Of a stretch of DNA of 64,000 nucleotides, positions 1 through 37,989 are shown piece by piece. How positions within the stretch are numbered: position 1 is the first letter of the stretch; every line of letters starts with the position of its first letter. The position numbers were made by a program, and so were the translations under genes. Below the pieces are notes generated by a model. The model was not told where the DNA came from. It made no database searches and saw only the letters and a program-made list of their open reading frames with translations. This stretch comes from Escherichia coli (GTDB taxonomy: Bacteria > Pseudomonadota > Gammaproteobacteria > Enterobacterales > Enterobacteriaceae), in assembly GCF_030013205.1 (NCBI RefSeq), contig NZ_CP122648.1. One strand, written 5' to 3'.

Positions 1-273
1 AAAGATCTTCGGGTTGATAAGCGTGAAACCAGTAACCTTTTTCTTCTTCGGGAGTTTCTGGTCCGTCGGCGCGGAAAGTGGTTACGGGAGGGATTTGTAT
101 ATACCCATAATGACAACGTGCAAACTCAGATATATTTTTCCTGATTTGTTGATAGGTGGCATTAAAAGCATGAAGAATCGCTTCGCCAGGTTTTTTGGGG
201 GTGATGATTTCACATTGTGATTTCTGAACAGCAGTAAGAGATTTACGCTCAAGTGTTTGCCGTAGATGTTCTG
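1..273 (-). CDS. Partial gene of unknown function, truncated by the window edge and by IS1
   Basis: Hand translation of the minus strand shows one frame open across 1-273 (peptide ...PEHLRQTLERKSLTAVQKSQCEIITPKKPGEAILHAFNATYQQIRKNISEF...); the + strand 68-aa ORF here looks spurious. The reading frame runs into the first base of IS1. Confidence 0.3.
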
Positions 274-328
274 GGTGATGCTGCCAACTTACTGATTTAG
301 TGTATGATGGTGTTTTTGAGGTGCTCCA

Positions 329-604
329 GTGGCTTCTGTTTCTATCAGCTGTCCCTCCTGTTCAGCTACTGACGGGGTGGTGCGTAACGGCAAAAGCACC
401 GCCGGACATCAGCGCTATCTCTGCTCTCACTGCCGTAAAACATGGCAACTACAGTTCACTTACGCCGCCTCTCAGCCCGGTACGCACCAGAAAATCATTG
501 ATATGGCCATGAATGGCGTCGGATGTCGCGCCAGTGCACGCATTATTGGCGTTGGCCTCAACACGATTTTCCGCCACTTAAAAAACTCAGGCCGCAGTCG
601 GTAA
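329..604 (+). CDS. insA: IS1 InsA (transposition repressor / N-terminal part of InsAB' transposase)
   Basis: 91-aa [43 protein letters not shown]... (zinc finger plus HTH); A6C slippery motif near 580-586. Confidence 0.9.
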
Positions 605-1026
605 CCTCGCGCATACAACCGGGCAGTGATGTGATTGTCTGCGCTGAAATGGACGAACAGTGGGGCTACGTCGGTGCTAAATCACGTCAGCGCTGGCTGT
701 TTTACGCGTATGACAGGATGCGGAGGACGGTTGTGGCGCACGTCTTCGGTGAACGCACTCTGGCCACACTGGAGCGTCTTCTGAGCCTGCTGTCGGCCTT
801 TGAGGTCGTGGTATGGATGACGGATGGCTGGCCGCTGTATGAATCACGCCTGAAGGGAAAGCTGCACGTTATCAGCAAGCGTTATACTCAGCGCATTGAG
901 CGGCATAACCTGAATCTGAGACAACATCTGGCAAGGCTGGGACGGAAGTCACTGTCGTTCTCAAAATCGGTGGAGCTGCATGACAAGGTCATCGGGCATT
1001 ATCTGAACATAAAACACTATCAGTAA
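523..1026 (+). CDS. insB: IS1 InsB reading frame (expressed as the InsAB' fusion by -1 frameshift)
   Basis: 167-aa ORF overlapping the insA 3' end in the -1 frame; sequence ...[22 protein letters not shown]... Confidence 0.85.
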
Positions 1027-1036
1027 GTTGGAGTCA

Positions 1037-1648
1037 TTACCCAATTTTTGAACTGTCTTTAAGATGAATATTACGGATAAGAAAACGAATGTAGTTATCG
1101 TTTTTAGATTCCCAGTGCGTATATTTACCAACTATGCTATTATTTTCTGACTGCCAGTGATCGAATGCTGTCTGTCCACTTATATTTTTATGATTAATGT
1201 CGCAACCAGCCTCAATTAGTGCATCGTACACATATCCTTCAAATGGAATGAAAAGAAAGGAATTGCCATAGCTATCTTTGGTATGGATATCTAGTCCTGC
1301 TTTGATAAGATATTTTACTAACCCTGGTGAAACATCAATATGTTGAATCGCAAGGGTGCCTGACTTATTCCGGTGGTTAACATTAATACCATTGCTGACA
1401 AGAAGTTCCACTGTTTCAACATTTTGAGCATAGAATAATGCATTATTACCGTCATTATCCAAGTGGTGAATGTCAATGTCAGCGTCAATCATTGCCTGTA
1501 TAGCTTCAGGTACATTACAGGTAAAAAGAGCAGTTTGACCTTTACTATTGCACATATTTATATCCATGCCAGCCTTAAGGCAACGAAGGACACCATTTTT
1601 AGACTTTACACGGAATAGGTTATTTTTATTATTTTCTCTTGATATCAT
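1037..1648 (-). CDS. Ankyrin-repeat protein; its stop codon lies inside the IS1 terminal repeat, so the C-terminus may be truncated
   Basis: 203-aa ORF with repeated ankyrin-like units (GQTALFTC..., DGNNALFYAQ..., SGTLAIQH..., YGNSFLF..., SGQTAFDHW); stop codon at 1037-1039 is within the last 5 bp of IS1; AT-rich DNA. Confidence 0.7.
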   Translation of the reverse strand: MISRENNKNNLFRVKSKNGVLRCLKAGMDINMCNSKGQTALFTCNVPEAIQAMIDADIDIHHLDNDGNNALFYAQNVETVELLVSNGINVNHRNKSGTLAIQHIDVSPGLVKYLIKAGLDIHTKDSYGNSFLFIPFEGYVYDALIEAGCDINHKNISGQTAFDHWQSENNSIVGKYTHWESKNDNYIRFLIRNIHLKDSSKIG

Positions 1649-2167
1649 TGTTTATCTCCTTTTTTGTTGTTTTCAAGATATTAATGACACCAGATTTTAC
1701 GGTATTCAAATTTATTTTTGTTTTATTAGGGGGTATCTGATTTGGTTTGCTTAAGGTTATTCTTAACTTAATGGAACATAGGGACGTTAAGGTTATCCTA
1801 TGTGATGTGGATTAACCATTTTCACAAGAATATTTATCCATATTGGAACTAATCTGTATAAAGGAGATAATTAGAGGCTCAGATATTAATACTATAGAGA
1901 GTAATGCTATAGGATATGGAAAAGATCATGTAATATAATGGTGGTTATTAATGTTCATCTTAATTTTGGAAATTAAATGAGTAGTGTTTTTTATGAGGTT
2001 TTTTGCTGTTGATAATTCTTATTAAAATTTGAAGAGCATCCTTTAAGTTATTCGGCTTGAGGATGCTCATTTAAAATTTAAGCAGCGTAGTCTTTTTCAA
2101 CAGCCAGGAAGGGGTGATGCTGCCAACTTACTGATTTAGTGTATGATGGTGTTTTTGAGGTGCTCCA

Positions 2168-2569
2168 GTGGCTTCTGTTTATATCAGCTGTCCCTCCTGT
2201 TCAGCTACTGACGGGGTGGTGCGTAACGGTAAAAGTACTGCCGGACATCAGCGCTATCTCTGCTCTCACTGCCGTAAAACATGGCAACTGCAGTTCACTT
2301 ACACCGCTTCTCAACCCGGTACGCACCAGAAAATCATTGATATGGCCATGAATGGCGTTGGCCTCAACACGATTTTACGTCACTTAAAAAACTCAGGCCG
2401 CAGTCGGCAACCTCGCGCATACAGCCGGGCAGTGACATCATCGTCTGCGCGGAAATGGACGAACAGTGGGGCTACGTCGGGGCTAAATCGCGGCAGCGCT
2501 GGCTGTTTTACGCGTATGACAGGCTCTGGAAGACGGTTGTTGCGCACGTATTCGGTGAACGCACTATAG
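2168..2569 (+). CDS. insA: IS1 InsA variant (11-aa deletion, read-through)
   Basis: [19 protein letters not shown]...[16 protein letters not shown] lacks [11 protein letters not shown] and continues past the usual stop (TAA changed to CAA). Confidence 0.7.
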
Positions 2570-2832
2570 CGACGCTGGAGCGTCTTATGAGCCTGCTGTC
2601 ACCCTTTGACGTGGTGATATGGATGACGGATGGCTGGCCGCTGTATGAATCCCGCCTGAAGGGAAAGCTGCATGTAATCAGCAAGCGATATACGCAGCGA
2701 ATTGAGCGGCATAACCTGAATCTGAGGCAGCATCTGGCACGGCTGGGACGGAAGTCGCTGTCGTTCTCAAAATCGGTGGAGCTGCATGACAAAGTAATCG
2801 GGCATTATCTGAACATAAAACACTATCAATAA
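2455..2832 (+). CDS. insB: IS1 InsB frame of the variant copy
   Basis: 125-aa [30 protein letters not shown]..., near-identical to copy 1 InsB. Confidence 0.7.
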
Positions 2833-2877
2833 GTTGGGACCATTACCAAATAGTTTATATGCTAAAAATTTAGGGAA

Positions 2878-5800
2878 TCATTTTCCTAATTCTCCAGCTA
2901 AAAGTTCAGCCTGCTTCAAAACAGTCTCTGTGGCGAGCAATGACATATCAGGCGGATAACCATATTTTTTGAGCAGACGTTTTACCACCACGCGAATTTT
3001 TGCTCTTGCTGCTTCTTTCACTGTCCAGTCAAGACTGACATTGTTGCGGATAGCCTCCGTAAGTACGACTGCCAGTTCTCGTAGTTTTTCCTTTTCCATT
3101 AACTCGCGAGCACTGTCGTTATCTGCAACAGCAGAATAGAAGGCATATTCATAAGCGCTGAGGTTTAACTGGCTGGCAAGGCTGTCAGATTCCTGGATAG
3201 TCTTGGCAAGCTTGATTAGCTCATCAATTACCTCCGCTGCGGTCAGTACCTTGTTCTGGTAGCCATTGATTGCAGAGGTCAGCATATCAATCAGTTTTTT
3301 GCCTTGGGTGATACTTTGATTCGAGCGAACCTTGATCTCGTCAGAAAGCAGTTTTTTAAGCGTTTCCAAAGCAATATTTCTGTGTTGGTAATCCTTCATT
3401 TCCTGAAGGAATTCTTCAGAAAGAACGGAAATATCAGGTTTTTGTATCCCAGCAGCGTCAAAAATATCAACAACTTTATCGGTAACCAGAGCCTGATCGA
3501 TAGTCTGTTTTACCCGAACTTCGAGACTGTCATTGTGTTCTTCTTCTGATCCGTCTGAGTTTTCAGTAAATTTATTCAGTCTGGCTTTTACTGCCTGGAA
3601 GAATGCTACTTCGGGTGCCGCTTCCATTGCTTTATCGTGCGGTGTCGCCAATGCAAATGCCTGCGATAAGGCTGCAACCGCAGCGAGGAAACGCATTTTA
3701 CCTTTACCGTTATCCAGCCCTAAAATATGGTTTTCTGATTCAAGAATAATTGTCAGGCGTTGTGAGGTAGTTGCGGCAAAGTAAGCTTTGTAATCGTATC
3801 CATGCATCATGCCTTCCAGGATTTCCAGCTTTTCCTGCATGAGCGTTACGGCTTCTTCCTGAACCTCAGCAGGATCTCCACGTCCACCTGCATCAGAGTA
3901 AAAGGAGAGGGCTTCTTTTAAATCAGAGGCAATGCCCAGATAGTCAACAACCAGACCGCCTATCTTATCTTTATACACACGGTTCACACGGGCAATTGCC
4001 TGCATAAGGTTGTGGCCTTTCATTGGTTTGTCGATATACAGCGTATGCATGCTGGGAGCGTCGAAGCCGGTTAACCACATATCACGCACTATCACCAGTT
4101 TCAGCTTGTCGTCGTCATCCTTCATACGGTTAGCCAGAACCTGACGTTCTTTTTTTGTGGTGTGGTGTTTGGCAATTTCTGGCCCGTCAGCAGCAGAAGA
4201 GGTCATGACGACTTTTATTATACCGTCATTTAAATCATCGCTGTGCCATTCAGGTTTTAAGGCTATGATTTCTTTATATAGTTCAGCAGCAATACGGCGG
4301 GACATGGTAACAATCATGCCCTTACCATGATCGGCATTGGATTTTAAGCGCTGCTCAAAGTGCAGAACCATATCCGCCGCAATCGCTTTAATACGTTTTG
4401 AACTGCCAATCAAACCTTCGATTCTGGCCCATTTAGAACGTTCTTTTTGCGTGAGCGTCAGTTCGTCCTCGTTAAACTCATCATCAAAGTCTTCAATAAG
4501 CTGACGACCTTCATCACTGATGGCAATTTTGGCAAGACGGCTTTCATAAAAGATACGAACTGTTGCACCATCTTCAACGGCCTGCGAGATATCGTAGATA
4601 TCAACATAGTTACCAAAAACAGCAGGCGTGTTGACGTCCGTTTTTTCTATGGGGGTTCCGGTAAAGCCGAGATAGGTCGCATTAGGTAAGGCATCACGCA
4701 TATATTTGGCAAAGCCGTAAACGGTGCGTTTACCTGTTACGTTGCCTTCGCTGTCTTTCACGTCAACTTCTTTGGCGCTGAAACCGTACTGGGAACGGTG
4801 TGCTTCATCAGCGATAACGACAATATTGGTTCTGTCTGACAACAACTCATAGATATTGCTGCCATCATCAGGCTGGAATTTTTGAATAGTAGTAAACACC
4901 ACACCGCCAGAGGCGACACGCAAATATTCTTTGAGTTCTTCCCGGTTGTTGGCCTGTTTTGGTGTCTGACGAAGTAGCTGGGTCGCGGAAGAGAACGTAC
5001 CGAATAGCTGATCATCTAAGTCGTTACGGTCAGTAATCACAACAACTGTCGGATTATCCAGCGCCAGCACAATTTTCCCGGTATAAAACACCATCGAAAG
5101 CGATTTACCGGAACCCTGAGTATGCCAGACTACGCCCGCTTTGCGATCTCCGGTTTTTTGCGCATTAACAAGATCTTTACTGTTACGTCCCTGCTGGCGC
5201 AGTGCCACTTCGGCAGAGGGGGAGTCCGCATTCACCGCTGAGGCACGAATAGTGGAAAGAACTGCTGCATTGACCGCGTAGTACTGGTGATAAGCCGCCA
5301 TTTTTTAACAGTACGGATACTGATAATCCCTTTGCTGTCTTCATGTTTGCTGGCCTCAAACACGATAAAGTGGCGGATTATATCCAGCAGCGTTACAGGA
5401 TTAAGCAACCCCTGTAATAAAACTTCAAGCTGTGGTTGGGTACTGGTGGCTTGCGTTTTACCGTTAGCAGTTTTCCACGTCATATAACGACTGAAATCGG
5501 CAGAAACCGTCCCCGCTTTGGCTTCCAGCCCGTCAGATATCACATTAAAAGCATTGTAGTTAAACAGACCGGGGATTTGGTTCTGATAGGTTTTAATCTG
5601 ATTATAGGCACCTGTTACCGTTGCATTTTCGTCAGCGGCATTTTTAAGTTCGATAACGACTAATGGCAGGCCATTGATGAATAAAATAAGATCAGGTCGG
5701 CGGGTATGGTTGCCTTCTTTGATGGTGAGCTGATTAATGACCAGAAATGCATTATTAGTGGGATCGTTAAAGTCGATCAGGCTGGCCAGTTCTCCTTGTG

Positions 5801-6116
5801 TATTACCATCCTTGCTGACTTCGATATTGATTCCTTCGGTCAAAAGGCGATGAAAGGTTAGATTGTTTGCCATTAGGTCAGGTGAGCTGATCTGCATCAC
5901 CTGTTTTAGAGCTTCTTCACACTTCTGCTCACTAAGGTGCGGGTTAATTCGTTGCAATGCTGTACGCACTTTATCTTCAAGGATAACCTGCTGATAGCTA
6001 CGTAACGGATTGATTCCACTGGGTTCAATGTCCGGGCCGTAAACATACTCATAGCCCAGCCCTTGCAGGTGCTCAATTGCCATTACTTCAATATCGGATT
6101 CGGTCATCTTTGCCAT
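2878..6116 (-). pseudogene. hsdR: Type I restriction enzyme R subunit (HsdR), split by a -1 frameshift in a homopolymer tract
   Basis: Two overlapping ORFs: 5232-6116 (N-terminal 294 aa) and 2878-5301 (807 aa with Walker A TQGSGKS and DEAD-like VIADEAHR). The junction is a 6-nt T run at 5301-5306 (A6 on the coding strand); adding one A would join the frames as ...[15 protein letters not shown]... Confidence 0.85.
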
Positions 6117-6174
6117 GCGTACTGTCCTTATTGCCGCTTAACCAGAGAGCGGGCTGTACACCCGCATAATTATT

Positions 6175-7368
6175 TTATGCTACTGATGCGATTGCTTCTT
6201 CCGCATACTGAACCCGTACTTCGCCGCTCATCAGTTTGGGAAGGAGAGTGTCGCGCAGAGATTCTATGTTTTTAATTTGTGAGTTGTTAATACTTATTTT
6301 TTTCCAGAAGAAATCAATCTGTGTAGTGAATTCTTTCACCATACACTCCGGGGGGAGTTTGAATTCTGGGCGTTGTAATCCGTCAGCCGACAGCTGATTT
6401 ACAGTTGAACCGTTAGTTGCAGCAACAACTTGCTCATGCATATCTTTGGAGCAAAGTAAATAGTACAGAAAAGCATTGGTTAAGTAACTATCGTCATTGA
6501 TGCTGATTTTAAATAAATGATGCGTATATATGGATAATTCGCTTTCTGTTTTTGGAATTATAGCAGGATACCCTATGAGTCGATATTCATGGCCCTGTTC
6601 TGTATTGGCTACAATGATATCCCCAGGCTTTATAATATGCCTTTCTTTAAAATCACCATTGTAGTATTTTATACCTGCACTCTTATAACCACCGCCCTCA
6701 AGTACTGAGTTCAAACTAAAAAGTGGAATGCCGTTATCTGACGTGGTAAGGCCGGCTCCCTTGTAGCTTAATCCCTTAGCTACTGTAATATGACAATCAA
6801 GAGTCGTTATTTCCCAATCCGCATGCGTCTCTTCAATAAACCACTGTCTAAATAGGGTTTCTGCCATGGATTCCAGAGTTTTATTCTGGCGATGAAGCAG
6901 GTCTATTTTGTCTTTAAGAGAGGACAAAATAGAGGCGATGGCTTTTTGTTCAGATTCATCAATTGGTAAGTAAAGAGGAATCAAATTTAGCGATGCTTTA
7001 TTTAATTTTGGTTGAGCAGCACCTGTTAAATAAGGAGATAGATCAAGTTGTGAAAAATATTGGATTATCAATGCCGTTAAATGGGGCTTTTTAGCTTTAA
7101 GGACATGAGCGTGATTATTAACCCAAAATTTTCCAGTAGCTTCAAATGCTATAGGTGTTTTTCTGGACTTTAAGTTTTCTCCATCTTCAGAAATAAGGAT
7201 GTAGCTGCCATCAAAAATATAATTGTCGATATAATCGACAATTCCTGACGCTCCATAATATGGAAAATTTCCTTTCTTATGGGCTCGTTCCATAGCACTC
7301 AAAGGAATTCTTTGTGCGTTGCAAAAATCTGCTAATTCAGTTATACAAAAATTTCTCCACCTACTCAT
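6175..7368 (-). CDS. hsdS: Type I R-M specificity subunit (HsdS)
   Basis: 397-aa ORF between hsdM and hsdR; its start overlaps the hsdM stop (ATGA); two-target-recognition-domain architecture inferred from length and position. Confidence 0.8.
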
Positions 7369-8912
7369 AAAACCACCTTCGCCAGATTATCAACGATGGC
7401 TCTGTTCAGACGCGCCTCTTCTTCCAGTTGCGCTTCAAACTCAGCTTTAAGAGCCGTAAAGCGTTCTTTAAAGTCGAAATCGTCTTCTTCATCAGCAAGA
7501 CCAACATAACGGCCAGGTGTCAGCACATAATCGAGTTTAGCAACTTCAGCAATGTCTACTGACGCACAGAAACCAGCGACGTCTTCGTAGTCGCCACCTT
7601 TGTTACGCCAGTTATGATAGGTATCAGCGATGGTTTTTATATCGTCGTCAGAAAGTACTTTGGTACGACGATTAATTAAATGACCGAGATTACGGGCATC
7701 AATAAACAGAATTTCTTTACTACGATCACGATACTGGTTGCTGTTATGACGGTCACGGCGCATAAACCATAATGCAGCAGGGATCTGAGTATTCAGGAAC
7801 AGCTTTGCCGGTAAGTTGACGATACAGTCAATCACATTGGCATCTTTTACCAGTGCAGCACGAATATCACCTTCACCAGAGCTTTTAGAAGTTAATGCCC
7901 CTTTTGCCAGAACAACACCCGCTTGCCCTTTAGGAGACAAGTGATACAAAAAATGTTGCATCCATGCAAAGTTAGCGTTGCCAGCAGGTGGAATGCCATA
8001 TTGCCAGCGGGCATCACCACGAAGCTGCTCACCAGACCAGTCGGAAACGTTAAACGGTGGGTTAGCTATGATAAAATCAGATTTCAAATCTTTGTGAGCA
8101 TCGTTAAGAAATGAACCTTCATTATTCCAGCGAACGTGTTCAGAATTAATCCCACGAATTGCCAGGTTCATTTTTGCCAGACGCCAAGTGGTCTGGTTGG
8201 ACTCCTGCCCATAGATCGAAATATCGTCAATATTTCCCTGATGTGCTTCTACAAATTTTTCTGACTGAACGAACATACCACCAGAACCACAGCAGGGATC
8301 AAAGACACGGCCTTTATAGGGTTCCAGCATGTTAACCAGCAGGCTTACAATAGATTTTGGCGTATAGAACTGGCCGCCTTGTTTGCCTTCTGCCAGTGCA
8401 AATTCACCTAGGAAGTATTCGAATACGTGACCTAAAACGTCAGCAGAGCGTGCTTTGGCATCTCCTAGTGCAATGTTGCCAATCAGATCTATCAGCTCAC
8501 CCAGAACAGTGGCGTCGAGGTTTTGTCGGGCATAGACTTTCGGCAACACACCTTTTAACTGTGGATTGCCCGCTTCGATAAGCTCCATCGCATCATCAAC
8601 CATCTTACCGATTTCAGGAAGCTTGGCCTTAGAAATCAGATAGTTCCAACGTGCAAGCTCAGGGACAAAGAAAACGTTGTAAGCGGTGTACTCGTCTTTG
8701 TCTTCCGGATCAGCACCTGCGAACTCGCCTTTACCGGCTTTCAGCAACTCATAATGAGATTCAAAAGAATCAGAAATGTACTTAAGGAAAATGAGGCCTA
8801 GTACGACGTGCTTGTACTCGGCTGCATCAATGTTTTTACGCAGTTTGTCTGCCGCTTTCCACAGGATGACCTCTAACGGGTCTGTTTTGATTTCTTTAGG
8901 TTTTCTGGCCAT
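7365..8912 (-). CDS. hsdM: Type I R-M N6-adenine DNA methyltransferase subunit (HsdM)
   Basis: 515-aa ORF with SAM-binding [11 protein letters not shown] and catalytic NPPF motifs. Confidence 0.9.
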
Positions 8913-9075
8913 TAGCGTAACCTTATGAAGGGGGAAGATGGCCCTATTTTGCCTTAAAGTTCCGCTTGTTACGAGCTTATACAGCGATTAATTATTATCT
9001 GGTTTTAGTGTGTTCGTGTAGCTCAGCAAGTGCAATGACTCATGGAGTAAATGCTTTGTAGCGGGATTGTAGATG

Positions 9076-9393
9076 TCAGGTCATTGCCGTCAATGGAGCC
9101 AGTGTCATTGGCATAATTGCTGCACAGCCGATGCCACGCGCACATTCGCTAGTTCACTGTGGTTCATCGTGTGTACTACACCAGTACGCAGTCCGGGAAG
9201 TAACGGCATGGCAGAATCGTTTGTAAAGACGTTCAAGCGGGATTATGTGTACGTAGATGATCTGCTGGATGCAGTCTAAATGATGGAAACAATGGCAGAA
9301 TAGATAGAGGATTATAATAATCTGCATCCACACAAGGGGTTGAACATGAAATCGCCACGCGAATATCGTGATGCCATATTAGCAGTTAATTAG
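9076..9393 (+). pseudogene. IS2-like (IS3 family) transposase 3' remnant, truncated and interrupted by stop codons
   Basis: Translation ...VRSPGSNGMAESFVKTFKRDYV... then, after stops, ...IEDYNNLHPHKGLNMKSPREYRD... matches the C-terminus of IS2 InsD as I recall it ([20 protein letters not shown]...YNEWHPHSALGYRSPREY). Confidence 0.55.
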
Positions 9394-10508
9394 CCGTGTC
9401 CGTTTTAGCAGGGACAACTCCAGTATTCAAAAAAGCTTTCTTAGTGCATATGCATGAGGTGAATAGATGTACAGGCTATGACAAACCATAGTTGTAATTT
9501 TTAATGTTTAAAATTCTCCGTTACAGTAGGACATTCCTTGTACATTAAATTCCATCTAAGGTTGAATTTTTAATTTAATAAGGTCGCAATCTAAAATGAT
9601 GTGTATGGGGTTATTTGTAAGATGATTTTTTATTTTTGATAGTGGTGATTAAGGGAGCGGGTAATGTTTGTCTATTCAAAAATATAGAGATTCAAGGTTG
9701 GTAGCAGTTTGGCTTCTTTTATAACCGAAGGGCAGAAAAGCAAGGGGAACTCGAAGAAGCAAGCGCAGCGGCTTCGCAGAGTTAGCCCTTGCTTCTCTTA
9801 TAATTGGCATTATTCATTCAAGAACAATAGGATCTTCGCTTGTACAAGCGAAGCTATAATAAAAACAATCAATTAATAATTTTAAAAGTATTAAACAAGA
9901 ACCTATTGACATTCATAAAATACAAGTTATTTATAATGTATGCCATAAATAAAAAGTTTTATGTCATATGTATCCTGCACTATGTGCAGTTAATGTACCA
10001 CTTGTCCCATAGATGGGAATATTGGAAAGGTTACTTTGTTTTGAAGTAGCCTTTCGTCCTTCAATATTAACGATTACTTATTGCTATTACCAAGTCCAGT
10101 CGAATCGAAGAACATCTTTTATCTGAAACGACTCCTAATACCCGGTTAAAGCCACAATATCTCTCGCATACGTAGACCAAAGAAAAATTATGATATTAAC
10201 TATGTGATTTTTTTTAGTGTTAAGTTGAATAATTAAATACTGGAGAGTTTTCTGTGCACTACCAATTGCTGGTTCATCTGTTCTGCCGCTGATGTTTCTG
10301 ACGAATCTCCCGGTGACACAGAACTGTCCCTCTCTACCAGCCTTTATTCGACTCAATGTCCGGCTGCTGATACGCAGTTATCCCTTCGTATCAATGACTG
10401 ACACTTAAACGTAATGCTTTGGTTGCTGGCGTATCTGACAGCTTCTTCGGCGTGAAGGTCGTTGTGTAAGTATACTTCTTGGTTTATTTAGGCTATATAA
10501 AACCATGA

Positions 10509-11405
10509 CTATGACTTGCTGTTTTCAGTAAGAGTCTTATCATCCAAAGAATTTATTCTAGAAATTCTTTTTAACTCATTAAGATAATCAACCTCGTTTT
10601 CTAAGAACCAATGAAGAACTTTAGAATTGCCAAGTAATTTATTAATATATGACTGGATTATAACGAATTTCAACATATCTGAACCATACTCGGTTTGAAG
10701 CTTTTTCGTTTCTTCCGAAGTTGTTGCCATTTCTTGTTCCAGACGAAGTATGGTTTTTTTTATGTCCTTTTTATAGGGAGTGTTTTTCCCTTTATTTACT
10801 ATCATCGATGCCGGTGTTGCATCCAAGATGCTCATTGCAAATTTTTTACTATAATTATCAAAATTAATCATTGTACCGACTGCTTCAATTTGGCGAATTG
10901 GCTTCATTTTCCTCAAAACGTCAAATGTAGCCTTAGGTATAGGTTTATCAGAAAGTTTCGCAATTACACTTGGATCTATGCCGTTCATCACATTCGCTTT
11001 ATCTTTTATGGCATCAACAGATATGCCCAAAGCAGCACTAAGTTTTTCAATTGATACTTTTGCCAGAGACTTAATTATCATTCTATGTTCTTCAACTACA
11101 TTTATATGATTCACTTGTTTGTTAGGAGTGAAAGCATCATCTATGCTCGAAAGTATACATGGAGCTTTTTCTATACCTAAGTCTTTTAAAGCCTCAACCC
11201 TTAAATGGCCATCAAGTATCTTAGTGACATCTTTATCTTTGTCATAGAATACTATTATTGGTTCAATAATACCTAAGCTTTCGATAGAGGTAACTATTTG
11301 ATGATATTTATGGCTTCGCTTTACGTTTTCTAATAATTCCTTAGATGGAATTAACTTATTAGTTTCCAGGTAAATAAAATTATCGCCAAAACGTATCTGA
11401 ATCAT
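10509..11405 (-). CDS. ParB/Srx-family protein (second of two tandem paralogues)
   Basis: 298-aa ORF; N-terminal ParB-like motif ...KILDGHLRVEALKDLGIEKAPCIL...; K/N/I-rich; start overlaps the upstream gene stop. Confidence 0.6.
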   Translation of the reverse strand: MIQIRFGDNFIYLETNKLIPSKELLENVKRSHKYHQIVTSIESLGIIEPIIVFYDKDKDVTKILDGHLRVEALKDLGIEKAPCILSSIDDAFTPNKQVNHINVVEEHRMIIKSLAKVSIEKLSAALGISVDAIKDKANVMNGIDPSVIAKLSDKPIPKATFDVLRKMKPIRQIEAVGTMINFDNYSKKFAMSILDATPASMIVNKGKNTPYKKDIKKTILRLEQEMATTSEETKKLQTEYGSDMLKFVIIQSYINKLLGNSKVLHWFLENEVDYLNELKRISRINSLDDKTLTENSKS

Positions 11406-12298
11406 TTTAATACCTCTTTGTTTACTGGGGTTAATATCTGAGATGGTAGTTCTGAAAGATTCTCTTGTTCAAGTATATGTTGAAAGCTTTTATTTATCAT
11501 TATGATGTTAAAAATCTCATTTACTATTAGTAGGTTGGTTTTTATGAATTTTGAGTTGTTATAAACAGATTTATGTTCAGCGATACTATTTTCATAAAGC
11601 TCAATCAACTCCTCTGCAGTCATCCTTTTTGATGGTTTGTGATAATAAAATCCGGCTGCTTTTGCACCTTTATTCCCAACTGTTCTTTGATTTAGAATGT
11701 GTTTTATCTTTATAATGTCCCGACTTTTTATTAATTTTTTATCATATGCTTCGGTAAGAATATCTTGTGCTTCCTCAGTTTCACATCTTGCAAATTGCAC
11801 TGCGAGATACAGAGGCAAATTACCCCGTTCGACTGCTGAGAGAAGTTTATGCTCTCCCTTATCAAGTAGCATATTAATACTGCTCACCCAGTTCGATGAA
11901 TATCCAGTAATCTCACTTATTTCGGAGTCTGAAAGTCCTCTGATTTTCATGTCTTTAATCACCTGTAATAACTCATTAGAACGTGGTCTTCTCCTTGCAA
12001 TGTTTTCAACTAAACTCATAACGTAAGCATCTTCTTCTGATACATCTCTTATAATTGCTGGAATAATAGTTTCACCTAATGCAACGAGAGCCTCTATTCT
12101 CCCTTGACCACAAATTAAAGCATATTTGAAATCGCCTTCATCAATAGCTCTTACGCTTATTGGCTTGCTTAATCCTCTTTTTTTTATGCTTTCCTTTATT
12201 TCTTCATGCACTACCTTATTTCTTGTTCGTGGGTTAAGAAATTTTATTTTTGCAATCTCAATTTGAATTATTGGGAATTCATTTTTTTCAGGCAGCAT
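11402..12298 (-). CDS. ParB/Srx-family protein (first of two tandem paralogues)
   Basis: 298-aa ORF; ...KPISVRAIDEGDFKYALICGQGRIEALVALGETIIPAIIRDV...LVENIARR... resembles ParB box regions followed by an HTH-like segment; no ParA partner adjacent. Confidence 0.6.
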   Translation of the reverse strand: MLPEKNEFPIIQIEIAKIKFLNPRTRNKVVHEEIKESIKKRGLSKPISVRAIDEGDFKYALICGQGRIEALVALGETIIPAIIRDVSEEDAYVMSLVENIARRRPRSNELLQVIKDMKIRGLSDSEISEITGYSSNWVSSINMLLDKGEHKLLSAVERGNLPLYLAVQFARCETEEAQDILTEAYDKKLIKSRDIIKIKHILNQRTVGNKGAKAAGFYYHKPSKRMTAEELIELYENSIAEHKSVYNNSKFIKTNLLIVNEIFNIIMINKSFQHILEQENLSELPSQILTPVNKEVLK

Positions 12299-13844
12299 AT
12301 AGTTCCCTCACTTTCATGCGAGTAATAATTTGTAGAAGTTTATCAAGATTATCAAATCTATAGAGATCTAATCGAATGTTGTTTGTTTCCGTCATGCACA
12401 TTTTATTATATTCGTTTTCAATCTTTGGTATGATATAAAAATCAAGAGGTGAAATATTTTGTGAATTCATTCGTATAACAATTGTTATGTCTGCTTTCTG
12501 TGAGTTATCAAACCGGACTTTCCATCTAAGTTTACCTGATTTCATATGTATGCATTTAGTAACAAGGACGGAAATTAAAAACTCATCATTGATGTAAAGC
12601 ATTGGGGCATATTTATACTCGTCTATATGACAGTTACTTTTTAAAATTTCACCCTTAAAATCCTCAATTATCTCTGAGTAAAATGATCTTAGTGCTTCAT
12701 TTATTTTGAGATAGCTGTAATCATGTTCTGGCTTATAACCAATCAAAGTATATGCTCTTAAAAGACCACCAAATCGGGTTCTATAAACAGAAGATGAAGG
12801 GCCTGTATCATCTTCATCAATGATAAAGCCTGATAGTTTTCCATTAGATTCTAATTTTTGTTTTAGTTTTTCTAATAGATCTTCATTAGTCAAATGAATG
12901 GATCGGAGCTGAATTATTTCTTGAGCTTTATTGTATTTTTTCTTTGAAATAATAGGTTTATATGCCTTGTCACATCTAACCCATTCATGTTTGGGGTTTT
13001 TTACAAGCCTACTTTTTAATTTAGATGAGGTTTTGTTATATATGTTGTTTCCAATATATTTTTCATTTGTCAAAATTTGATGTATTTTTGCACGAGTCCA
13101 TAATGTTCCATTTTCTGCAGGTATGTTCTGTTCATTTAATCTCTCAGCAATAATGAATTCTGGGACGTTATTATCTATAAAGAGATCATATATTCTATTT
13201 ACAATTTTTATTTCATTTTTTGGTCCCGGAATTAATATTACCCTATCTGTTTGAATACTCTTTCTTTTGCGGAAACTCAATATTTCTTTAGCTATGCCAT
13301 TTTCGTCTACTAAAAGACGTCTCAGCCCATAACCAGCCATACCGCCTTGATGATAACCAAGCTTTATTAAATTTACTTGCCCTATAAATACCTTTTCAGA
13401 TAGATTCCTGCTGTGATATGCAGCACTAGATCTTTTTATATTCAGTATAACAGAGGACTCTAAAGGGAAATCTTTAGTGGGTATAGGTTCGGAACAATAT
13501 ATAAGATCTACACCATTTCTCTCAAATAGAAAGGAATAATATGCCGCTTCATCACTATTTTGAAAACGACCAAAACGGCTCACATCATAAAATAATACAG
13601 CCTGTATATCTATTTTCTTTTGTTCTACATCGCTAAGTAACTGCTGCAAAGAATGCCTGCCTACGATACTGACTCCGCTCTTACCTGCATCATCGTAGGT
13701 ATAAGCGATTTCCATATTGTTCTTTTCAGCATAATCTTTGATATATTCGGACTGATTATGTAAAGAATATTGCTGATGGTCGGTAGACATCCTCAAGTAC
13801 TGCGCGACCCTAACTCTATGATTTTTGTCATTTTCGCTAGCCAT
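12288..13844 (-). CDS. Large serine recombinase (resolvase/invertase catalytic domain plus C-terminal recombinase domain)
   Basis: 518-aa ORF; N-terminus VAQYLRMSTDHQQYSLHNQ... carries the catalytic-serine motif typical of serine recombinases; overlaps the downstream ParB-like gene by 11 nt. Confidence 0.7.
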   Translation of the reverse strand: MASENDKNHRVRVAQYLRMSTDHQQYSLHNQSEYIKDYAEKNNMEIAYTYDDAGKSGVSIVGRHSLQQLLSDVEQKKIDIQAVLFYDVSRFGRFQNSDEAAYYSFLFERNGVDLIYCSEPIPTKDFPLESSVILNIKRSSAAYHSRNLSEKVFIGQVNLIKLGYHQGGMAGYGLRRLLVDENGIAKEILSFRKRKSIQTDRVILIPGPKNEIKIVNRIYDLFIDNNVPEFIIAERLNEQNIPAENGTLWTRAKIHQILTNEKYIGNNIYNKTSSKLKSRLVKNPKHEWVRCDKAYKPIISKKKYNKAQEIIQLRSIHLTNEDLLEKLKQKLESNGKLSGFIIDEDDTGPSSSVYRTRFGGLLRAYTLIGYKPEHDYSYLKINEALRSFYSEIIEDFKGEILKSNCHIDEYKYAPMLYINDEFLISVLVTKCIHMKSGKLRWKVRFDNSQKADITIVIRMNSQNISPLDFYIIPKIENEYNKMCMTETNNIRLDLYRFDNLDKLLQIITRMKVRELYAA

Positions 13845-14014
13845 GCACGAAACCTCATGGATGATTCAATACAATGTAGTGGATAAAATTGATCAAATTT
13901 CAACCGAATTCAACTGTTTTATCATTGATTAGAGCGAATTTGGTAGATCTTCGAGGTGTATGATAATCGAGAAGAGATGTGAATTATTTAGCTGATATGA
14001 CCGACAGCTTTCGT

Positions 14015-14064
14015 TATGTGGACTCAATGTCCCCATTTGTAAATGGCTATGCTTAGTCCACATA
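14015..14064. repeat. Inverted repeat TATGTGGACT ... AGTCCACATA (10-bp arms, about 30-bp spacer) upstream of the serine recombinase gene
   Basis: Seen directly in the sequence (approximate coordinates); lies in the 282-bp gap between the serine recombinase and the integrase. Confidence 0.5.
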
Positions 14065-14126
14065 GGTTAATGGTGTGATTATTAATTCTTTAACTAAATC
14101 AAGATAGTTAATCCATCATGGGAGAG

Positions 14127-15356
14127 TTATGCGGCCATAACTTTGCATTTTTGAGACGAAACATAGTCACTCCACCATTGCATGAGAACCACCCGTTCAG
14201 TGAGATACTCTGCACGATTGTAGGCTGCAATTATTTCATCTTTCTTCGAGTGGGCAAGGGCGGCTTCTAAGACATCAGTCCTAAACTTGCCAGACTCCTC
14301 AGCAGCCGTTCTAGCAATGGATCGCATACCGTGAGCTACAAGCTCACCTCCGAAACCCATACGGATTATGGCCGCATTAGCTGTTTGTTCATGCATGTGA
14401 TTGAGTGGAGCTTTGATACTGGGGAACACCCACTCTCTATGCCCGCTGATGACTTTCATTAAATCCAAAACTCGCAAAGCTTCTTTGCTCAGTGGAACTT
14501 TGTGAGGCTTCTTCATTTTCATAAACTCCGCCGGGATGTTCCACATGCCAGTTTCAATATCAATATCTGACCATCTTGTGCGAACAGCTTCACCTGGGCG
14601 AACCCATGTGAGAAGTTGCCACTCAATCAGTAGCCTTGTTTCCAAACGGATAGAAGCATTGTTTAGAGCAACCAAGAAGCGAGGGAGTTCGGAAGGGGGT
14701 AATGCTGGCATATTCTGTTTTTTTGGCTTGCTGAACCGTTGCCCCAGGTTGTCTGCCGGGTTGAATTCTATGAGTTCTTCTGTTGCTGCATAGCGGAAAA
14801 TTTCATTCAGGCGGGATATGATGCGGCGAAGTGTTTCAAGGACACCTCGTTTTTCTATGGGTTCTAAATGCTGTTTAAGCATTTTAGGGCGAATCTCCTT
14901 AATTGGGGTATCACCCAATGTGGAAAAGATATTTCTCTCTAGGCTTCGCCAGATGTCGTTAGCATGATCTTGGGAGATGCCTGACGTTTTGACTTTCTCA
15001 TCAAGCCACTTCTTGGCTACTGCTTGAAATGTATGTTCCGTGGCATCTTTCAGTGCATTGGCTTTTTGGTTGTTATGAACTTGGGGGTCTATACCATTTG
15101 TAAGCAACGACAAGTATTCATCACGTAAAGCTCGTGCCTTCGCAAGTGTAAGGTGAGGATAGGTTCCTAAGCTCACCTTAGTTCGCTTTTTGGTCACAGG
15201 CACTGCATATCTGAAATACCAATTTTTCTTCCCTCCCTTCGCCAGGGGAGCGATTCGCAACAGCAAACCATCGCCGTCAAAAAGGTTAACCTCTTTTTCG
15301 GCAGGTTTGGTGCTTTTGATTTCAGTGTCAGTGAGCTTCTTAGCGATTTTGGCCAT
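14127..15356 (-). CDS. intA: P4-type tyrosine integrase (IntA-like) at the 3' end of ssrA
   Basis: ORF 14127-15437 (GTG start in the track); probable start at 15356 (MAKIAKKLTDTEIK...), matching the N-terminus of CP4-57 IntA as recalled; conserved ...HGMRSIARTAA... region. Confidence 0.85.
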   Translation of the reverse strand: MAKIAKKLTDTEIKSTKPAEKEVNLFDGDGLLLRIAPLAKGGKKNWYFRYAVPVTKKRTKVSLGTYPHLTLAKARALRDEYLSLLTNGIDPQVHNNQKANALKDATEHTFQAVAKKWLDEKVKTSGISQDHANDIWRSLERNIFSTLGDTPIKEIRPKMLKQHLEPIEKRGVLETLRRIISRLNEIFRYAATEELIEFNPADNLGQRFSKPKKQNMPALPPSELPRFLVALNNASIRLETRLLIEWQLLTWVRPGEAVRTRWSDIDIETGMWNIPAEFMKMKKPHKVPLSKEALRVLDLMKVISGHREWVFPSIKAPLNHMHEQTANAAIIRMGFGGELVAHGMRSIARTAAEESGKFRTDVLEAALAHSKKDEIIAAYNRAEYLTERVVLMQWWSDYVSSQKCKVMAA

Positions 15357-15522
15357 GTTTGGGACCCTCGATTTTAGGACCCATCTTCGTGGGTCCCATT
15401 CAGGGTGCCATAACTCGTAGTTCTCAGCAATTCTCACTAGACTACAATAGACGTAAAAAAGCCCGCAGAGCTTGTGCTGTGCGGGCTTAGTAGACTTTAC
15501 TGAACTTCAGTACATCAATATT

Positions 15523-15885
15523 TGGTGGAGCTGGCGGGAGTTGAACCCGCGTCCGAAATTCCTACGTCCTCGGTACTACATGCTTAGTCAGTCTTTACAT
15601 TCGCTTGCCAGCTGCGGACGGACACGCCACTAACAAACTAGCCTGATTAAGTTTTAACGCTTCAACCCCAGGCAGGGCTTCCACGCGATCTCTTTTGGGT
15701 TTGACCTCTCTTGATCCCCGTCCTAAGAGCGGAGGCTAGGGAGAGAGGGCTCTAAGCAGGTTATTAAGCTGCTAAAGCGTAGTTTTCGTCGTTTGCGACT
15801 ATTTTTTGCGGCTTTTTACGAGGCCAACCGCCCCTCGGCATGCACCTTGGGTTTCGCAAATCCCGTCGAATCCAGAATCAGCCCC
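15523..15885 (-). ncRNA. ssrA: tmRNA (SsrA), 363 nt
   Basis: Reverse complement begins GGGGCTGATTCTGGATTCGACGGG and ends ...GGGTTCAACTCCCGCCAGCTCCACCA; the tag-template region is present. Confidence 0.95.
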
Positions 15886-33830: not shown

Positions 33831-33878
33831 TCAGGGGAAGGTAAAAAAGAATGCGAAGAAAAACGGTGTGTGTTTCAT
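33831..33878 (-). CDS. pheL: pheA leader peptide PheL (15 aa, Phe-rich)
   Basis: Reverse complement reads ATGAAACACACACCGTTTTTCTTCGCATTCTTTTTTACCTTCCCCTGA (MKHTPFFFAFFFTFP). Confidence 0.9.
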   Translation of the reverse strand: MKHTPFFFAFFFTFP

Positions 33879-33935
33879 GTTTGTTTCCTTAAGTGACTTT
33901 AGTACAGTACCCGTACTGTTTTCACGCTGTCAACA

Positions 33936-37667: not shown

Positions 37668-37989
37668 GAAACCAGAACATGCACACACAAAAAAACCGCT
37701 TGCCATGCCGTAATCAGTCAGGTTACATTTCCGCTGCACCTCATAAAACGGGTGCCGGGATTCTCAACCCGATACAGAGCAAAGCGCATAACCGCGCCAG
37801 CGGTTTTTTTGTGCGTACTGTATTGCCACGTCTTTTTCGCGTCAGAATTATGGCGGGGCGTACGGGGCCGACTTCGGTCGGGCCGGATTCTTTGCTCTCC
37901 GGTGTTGAGAACCCTGTACGTCTCGCCACCCCGAGATTCTCAACTCTGGATGGTGAGTTATTTCTATCACCGAGCAAAGAGGCCACACC

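Follow-up and report, generated by a model that had tools for sequence, protein, structure and literature searches.

The window analyzed here, a stretch of 64,000 nucleotides of Escherichia coli DNA, begins at its left edge inside a minus-strand reading frame that runs against a complete copy of IS1, beyond which lie a truncated ankyrin-repeat gene and the rest of a genomic island linked to the tmRNA gene ssrA. Pig ETEC chromosomes match the window at 100% identity; in ETEC4079 (NZ_CP122643.1) it corresponds to positions 1215726–1279725, exactly so wherever the two were compared. The features to which the discussion refers are as follows.

1..273, minus strand: fragment assigned to a ygaQ-type alpha-amylase-family gene (gene nt 560–832 of 2253) by 100% identity; continues left beyond the window
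14..220, plus strand: ORF of 68 aa with a TTG start, judged a spurious antisense shadow from its substitution pattern relative to N2456
274..1041, plus strand: complete IS1, 768 bp (inverted repeats, Pfam, RefSeq annotation)
329–604, plus strand: insA, within the IS1 at 274–1041
523–1026, plus strand: insB', within the IS1 at 274–1041
1037..1648, minus strand: 3'-truncated ankyrin-repeat gene of the ssrA-linked island (Pfam Ank matches)
2113..2847, plus strand: second, diverged IS1, 735 bp, in direct orientation (alignment to 274–1041, RefSeq annotation)
2878–6117, minus strand: hsdR, type I restriction R subunit
about 11403–12298, minus strand: ParB-like gene
15523–15885: tmRNA gene ssrA
33754–33879: Phe leader
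about 34046–64000: P2-family prophage, from just past the Phe leader to the window end

The reading frame at the left edge

Six-frame translation of 1–273 gives zero stops in the minus-strand frame with codons 271–269, 268–266 and onward, that is, 90 open codons over 1–271, and stops in each of the other five frames; the single stop-free minus frame described in the initial annotation is thus present. Its translation is EHLRQTLERKSLTAVQKSQCEIITPKKPGEAILHAFNATYQQIRKNISEFARCHYGYIQIPPVTTFRADGPETPEEEKGYWFHAYQPEDL, which runs AILHAFNATY...YWFHAYQPEDL and corresponds to the start of a catalytic barrel. Taken alone as an ORF, the open frame is only mildly unusual: at least one fully open frame among the six appears in 127 of 5000 composition-preserving shuffles of 1–273 (2.5%), and the GC content of the region is low, at 42.5%. 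Because shuffled sequence yields an open frame often enough, homology is needed to decide whether this frame is real.

Read from 273 to 1, the window is 100% identical to nt 560–832 of a 2253-nt gene (L001 7442–9694), positions 271 to 1 encoding residues 188–277 of its 750. Of 5426 complete E. coli genomes searched by megablast with 1–273, 3430 gave a match, nearly always single-copy and chromosomal, with at least 80% query cover at 90% identity or more in 3390 genomes. ETEC1748 matches the window without a difference over 1–5306, and when the frame is followed leftward there it stays open for 564 codons, up to a native stop. Across the 1694 retained nucleotides, differences between the window and the N2456 allele are distributed 6:7:55 over minus-frame codon positions 1:2:3; within 1–273 the distribution is 1:0:10 (10 of 11 at third positions), and only 2 of 90 residues change, a coding-like pattern. 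The leftward extension and the homology search that had been proposed as checks on the frame therefore both came out in its favor.

One could still hold that the frame arose by chance in antisense or non-coding DNA, in keeping with the low GC content and with the 2.5% of shuffles in which 90 open codons arise by composition. This reading is refuted by the complete identity to an annotated 750-aa gene found in 3430 genomes, by the bias of substitutions toward third codon positions, and by the family and PDB sequence matches described below, and we give it next to no credence. On these sequence grounds, we take the minus frame at 1–273 to be a genuine gene, the center of a ygaQ-type gene of the alpha-amylase family.

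The same substitutions bear on the plus-strand ORF at 14–220. Relative to N2456, 10 of the 11 allelic differences fall at its first codon positions and alter 9 of its 68 amino acids, as compared with 2 altered residues in the minus frame; no plus-strand CDS is annotated at 14–220 in the RefSeq records examined (222, 7/2, ETEC1748 and N2456). Since these 10 differences lie at minus-frame third positions, the plus-strand ORF is best read as an antisense shadow of the minus frame. It had already been suspected of being spurious, and it merits no CDS call.

Identity of the ygaQ-type gene

The matched genes are annotated as "alpha-amylase family glycosyl hydrolase" or "alpha amylase C-terminal domain-containing protein." Strains 222 and 7/2 carry a 2253-nt copy that codes for 750 aa (WP_021523230.1) and sits between tRNA-Ile (ileY) and glaH-lhgO-gabD-gabT-gabP; in ETEC1748 the gene is a pseudogene followed by glaH, lhgO, gabD, gabT and gabP, and K-12 and other strains have the same order. 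When compared with the ygaQ orthologue group, the fragment shows the conserved position directly upstream of glaH-lhgO-gabD-gabT-gabP and a near-identical nucleotide sequence, and it lacks the start codon and the N-terminal 186 residues of a complete gene. It is accordingly the remnant of a ygaQ-family member rather than an intact member. The ygaQ-type gene itself is an AT-rich accessory gene that adjoins glaH/csiD in most E. coli. What the initial annotation had called a gene of unknown function is thus the ygaQ-type, GH13-like gene of the alpha-amylase family beside glaH/csiD.

This family assignment was made through the full-length orthologue because the 90-aa fragment alone is uninformative in Pfam, where the result was not meaningful (HEF_HK, E = 0.079, which misses the cut-off). 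The orthologous protein scores 27.5 bits against Pfam Alpha-amylase_C (cut-off 21.2), and for Pfam Alpha-amylase the full protein lies just below the cut-off of 22.0 (21.8 bits) and the remnant just above it (22.5 bits). A PDB sequence search retrieved Amy16 of Ruminococcus bromii and Bacillus alpha-amylases with E values of 1.7e-7 to 5e-6, the alignments spanning residues 215–318, including the part encoded in the window, together with the region II motif GLRYDAAKH; residues 218–318 align to the N-terminus of a solved alpha-amylase catalytic domain. Of the conserved regions II–IV, where GH13 enzymes have their catalytic Asp/Glu/Asp triad, region II (GLRYDAAKH) aligns to the solved amylase and the NHD motif (ININHDF) is visible in the translation, the residues of both being encoded to the left of the window. 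Taken together, the Pfam and PDB comparisons amount to a marginal, consistent match to the catalytic (beta/alpha)8 and C-terminal all-beta domains of GH13, the alpha-amylase family. The NCBIfam search gave only far-sub-threshold alpha-amylase matches (22 bits, with cut-offs of at least 749), and on account of these scores the protein was rejected as an equivalog of the matched periplasmic alpha-amylase models.

A glycosidase role for the full-length ygaQ-type protein is putative and follows from family membership; no biochemical work on this protein came out of a literature search. The sole functional paper that it returned concerns a 110-aa N-terminal fragment of the K-12 protein, which when overexpressed conferred resistance to mitomycin C and which in purified form cleaves 5' single-stranded DNA flaps (PMC4725251). 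Because residues 1–110 fall in the part that has been deleted here, the window is silent on this nuclease claim.

IS1 and the loss of the 5' end

The element at 274–1041 has the length (~768 bp), the imperfect terminal repeats (~23 bp) and the insA and insB' frames that identify IS1. Its inverted repeats occupy 274–296 and 1019–1041, and arms taken at 272–296 and 1019–1043 are 84% complementary; the left repeat, with the sequence GGTGATGCTGCCAACTTACTGAT, starts at 274 and begins GGTGATGCTGCC. Pfam matches are all far over cut-off (Zn_ribbon_InsA, 75 bits; HTH_Tnp_IS1, 97; DDE_Tnp_IS1, 249), and RefSeq labels the element an IS1 family transposase with programmed frameshift. As had been claimed from the sequence, the 5' end of the minus frame does enter this element, and base 274 is common to IS1 and the native gene (a 274-nt match), which places the break at gene nt 558/559. 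The flanks of the element are GATGTTCTG (265–273) and CAATTTTTG (1042–1050), and the 9-bp target duplication sought between them is absent. Without such an 8–9 bp duplication, the present junctions must stem from deletion or rearrangement, and the identity of the element as IS1 is unaffected.

The second IS1 (2113–2847), placed between the ankyrin gene and hsdR, aligns to the first in blocks of 96% and 90% identity (90–97% between the copies). It is shorter by a net 33 nt, and the alignment breaks in the insA/insB overlap region. It is widespread, and it is present in N2456-type genomes that are without the first IS1. The two direct copies bracket the truncated ankyrin gene (274–2847) in an arrangement that resembles a composite transposon.

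Both the ankyrin gene and the second IS1 belong to an ssrA-linked genomic island that extends from 1042 to ssrA (window 1042–15885) and also contains an integrase (about 14127–15356), a recombinase, two ParB-like genes, a degenerate integrase-core fragment and a type I R-M operon (hsdM, hsdS, hsdR). The hsdMSR-ankyrin block is also found near mutS in strain 2017.20.01CC, where it stands beside relaxase and integrase genes; this setting suggests that the island may once have been a mobilizable element, of which the window keeps only a deleted remnant. Within hsdR, positions 5301–5306 are a run of 6 T in the window, whereas ETEC1748 and N2456 have 7 T; the longer run occurs in 317 of the 318 genomes with this hsdR, T6 being confined to ETEC4079. 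The T6 run leaves hsdR frameshifted, with an ORF of 807 aa as against 1079 aa, and reflects either a genuine change, inactivating or phase-type, or an error in sequencing the homopolymer. At about 12178, in the ParB-like gene, the window has one extra T relative to ETEC1748, in which the ParB/RepB/Spo0J gene is annotated as frameshifted; the gene is annotated as intact in N2456, and the window copy may be the intact form. Farther to the right, the P2-family prophage carries genes for an integrase, replication endonuclease, ParM, Ogr-like protein, portal, terminase, capsid and tail, and has Rfam matches to isrK (37736–37810) and C4 antisense RNA (37846–37933). It is absent from ETEC1748, a close relative, where raiA comes directly after pheL.

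The initial annotation held that the gene had been interrupted by the insertion. The first half of that statement stands, in that a real gene is cut on its 5' side by an IS1 that abuts the frame exactly at 273/274, just as a simple insertion would leave it. Such an insertion would, however, have split the gene and left its 5' half beyond IS1, and what lies to the right of IS1 in place of the 5' part of ygaQ is the minus-strand ankyrin-repeat gene, itself cut at its 3' end. When ygaQ nt 1–558 were searched across the full 64-kb window no match was found, nor was there one for ileY, the window containing no tRNA and only the tmRNA; the 9-bp target duplication is likewise missing. With the 5' part of ygaQ adjoining IS1 neither in the window nor in the annotation of ETEC1748, simple insertion is refuted, and we regard it as scarcely credible. 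The absent duplication, the ankyrin gene beyond IS1 and the missing 5' part point instead to 5' truncation by an IS1-associated deletion. We are highly confident that ygaQ was truncated in this manner and that what is left is a non-functional pseudogene, joined by IS1 to island DNA.

It is informative to examine this junction in related genomes. A query with 100 nt on each side of the ygaQ/IS1 junction gave an exact match in 10 complete genomes, each of them of swine origin (K_EC180, EC556, EC571, EC581, and ETEC1748, 4067, 4069, 4070, 4071 and 4079), and this count is a lower bound because the query detects one IS1 orientation only. In the swine genomes ETEC6333, ETEC6334, ETEC1701, P15-25 and W13-16, the match runs from 26 nt of ygaQ into IS1. 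An IS3-family element lies in the ygaQ remnant of ETEC6333 at 26 nt from the IS1 junction (L005 3263–4583), and ETEC6334, ETEC1701, P15-25 and W13-16 probably carry the same insertion, to judge from their matches. ETEC6333 is 100% identical to the window over 248–1041 and so has the same ygaQ/IS1 junction and IS1 sequence, its IS3 insertion being the later event. Between the right end of IS1 and the sequence that starts at window position 1042, this genome contains an extra 1255 bp, made up of a 146-aa hypothetical gene and the remainder of the ankyrin gene, which at full length encodes 328 aa there; in the window, native ankyrin sequence starts at 1042, and the last codon and stop are supplied by the IS1 end. 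The extra DNA is collinear with the island block near mutS in strain 2017.20.01CC, a copy independent of this one, and in that strain the ETEC6333 IS1 break point maps inside a second ankyrin gene.

Comparison with a genome lacking the first IS1, which had also been proposed at the outset, was made with N2456, where a full-length ygaQ (with one internal stop) lies 95 nt from a 300-aa ankyrin gene. Although this arrangement would allow N2456 to be the direct ancestor of the window by a single deletion of ~950 bp, that derivation was rejected, since in N2456 the ankyrin gene contains a junction of that strain's own, free of any IS and lying 170 nt upstream of ygaQ.

Because ETEC6333 has the window junction with a longer right flank, the history of the locus would include at least two deletion steps. 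In the first, which would have taken place in the pig-ETEC lineage, a deletion associated with IS1 joined internal ygaQ sequence to internal sequence of the ssrA-linked island; the element sits at gene nt 558/559, and the ~558 nt before it (residues 1–186) have been lost, as has all the DNA that once separated ygaQ from the island interior, so that IS1 now links ygaQ codon 187 to island DNA. In the second, in the lineage of the window, a further 1255 bp would have been deleted beside the right end of this IS1, which served as the anchor, with loss of the small hypothetical gene and the 3' end of the ankyrin gene. This two-step history is the simplest account, and we infer the order of the deletions, and whether IS1 first sat in ygaQ or in the island, from few comparator genomes.

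Deletions adjacent to an insertion sequence that IS1 itself promotes have one fixed IS end, with variable deletions beside it. The ETEC6333 structure, with the same junction and 1255 bp more at the right, points to deletions associated with IS1, and these would be the element's own work if intramolecular transposition produced the adjacent deletion. It is also worth considering that homologous recombination between an IS1 in ygaQ and a second, direct copy in the island likewise yields a single IS1 and no target duplication. Copies are abundant, with a median of ~10 matching places per genome and ~20 in ETEC strains, and the second direct copy in the window is just 1 kb off. Against this, an intermediate with two IS1 copies was not seen among the inspected genomes, and the combination of a fixed left and a variable right junction, as between ETEC6333 and the window, is typical of adjacent deletion; neither point is decisive. 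We favor adjacent deletion by IS1 and leave to recombination an appreciable minority chance of being the correct route.

Fate of the remnant and comparison with known systems

Gone from the remnant are the promoter and ribosome-binding site of the gene, its start codon and its N-terminal domain. The minus frame is open for 31 codons into IS1 before a stop at 363–365, and the stretch running from that stop to the window's left edge contains no ATG, GTG or TTG in frame; the frame first offers a start codon, an ATG, 17 nt past that edge, at residue 283 and after the first barrel strands, with no Shine-Dalgarno-like sequence. A promoter scan of the minus strand over 1–1100 found no promoter-like site. 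The GC content of the remnant is 39% (GC3 33%), as against 50% in neighboring core genes, and K-12 ygaQ is among the horizontally acquired, H-NS-silenced genes with intragenic promoters (PMC7229825). All 564 codons of the remnant are open, with only 8 differences from an intact allele, which indicates that the truncation is young; because it is recent, sequence decay can give no independent proof of inactivity.

These same features can be turned toward the idea that the truncated gene is expressed, for example by transcription out of IS1, as an N-terminally shortened, active glycosidase. The 564 codons are intact, the barrel and C-terminal domain are kept, the frame is open 31 codons into IS1, and read-through from IS1 or internal or non-canonical initiation would be compatible with the sequence. 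Nonetheless, no in-frame start is available from the stop in IS1 past the window edge, the ATG at residue 283 is without a Shine-Dalgarno sequence, the scan found no outward promoter-like site, and K-12 ygaQ belongs to the H-NS-silenced, horizontally acquired genes (PMC7229825), so that an active product seems highly improbable. We infer that the remnant is not expressed and conclude, from sequence features, that it is most probably a recently made non-functional pseudogene, an ordinary dead gene. RefSeq already treats it as a pseudogene in ETEC1748, whose sequence here is identical, with the remark "incomplete; missing N-terminus."

For annotation, the minus-strand fragment is to be labeled a 5'-truncated ygaQ-type alpha-amylase-family pseudogene, and the IS1 is to be described as bounding a deletion and not as a simple insertion. 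The shared ygaQ/IS1 junction provides a clean lineage marker for the swine ETEC group. Beyond this, the window adds a further case of decay at the ygaQ locus in E. coli and has little wider weight.

Truncations of a similar kind are found in other strains. In EC361 (L009) and MB20 (L010), IS1-bounded 5' truncations of ygaQ lie at about nt 255 and about nt 526, with the other deletion end in ypjCB and ypjA, respectively. In both, as in the window, the 5' end of ygaQ has given way to an IS1 of the same orientation, an agreement in orientation that carries no weight because the junction query can detect this orientation only, and RefSeq describes the gene as "missing N-terminus," as it does the ETEC1748 remnant. 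In contrast, the break points differ from 558/559 and the other ends differ from the ssrA island, and these differences indicate separate events. There are thus at least three independent IS1-bounded truncations of ygaQ within about 300 bp (at about nt 255, about nt 526 and 558/559), and the truncations in EC361 and MB20, together with separate nonsense mutations in K-12 and N2456, amount to repeated decay of the locus. This invites speculation that the 5' end of ygaQ is a recurrent target of IS1-anchored deletion whose loss is selected rather than neutral. We consider this unlikely; if true, it would mean that loss of an H-NS-silenced gene, or of its N-terminal domain with the reported nuclease, is favored.

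The structure of the locus has the marks of the classic adjacent deletions of IS1, in that one complete IS1 is kept, no target-site duplication is present and, between the window and its relatives, one junction is fixed and the other varies. Here, the adjacent deletion is read from the junctions, and recombination of two IS1 copies would give the same structure. The ygaQ gene of K-12 MG1655 (b4462) offers a second comparison. Like the remnant in the window, it is an inactivated pseudogene in the same slot beside glaH-lhgO-gabDTP, with ileY on its other side, derived from a gene 2253 nt in length. The two differ in how they were inactivated: K-12 ygaQ keeps its full length and has three in-frame stops, whereas in the window the first ~558 nt are gone and IS1 stands in their place, the 110-aa fragment with nuclease activity reported for K-12 being exactly the portion that the window remnant lacks.
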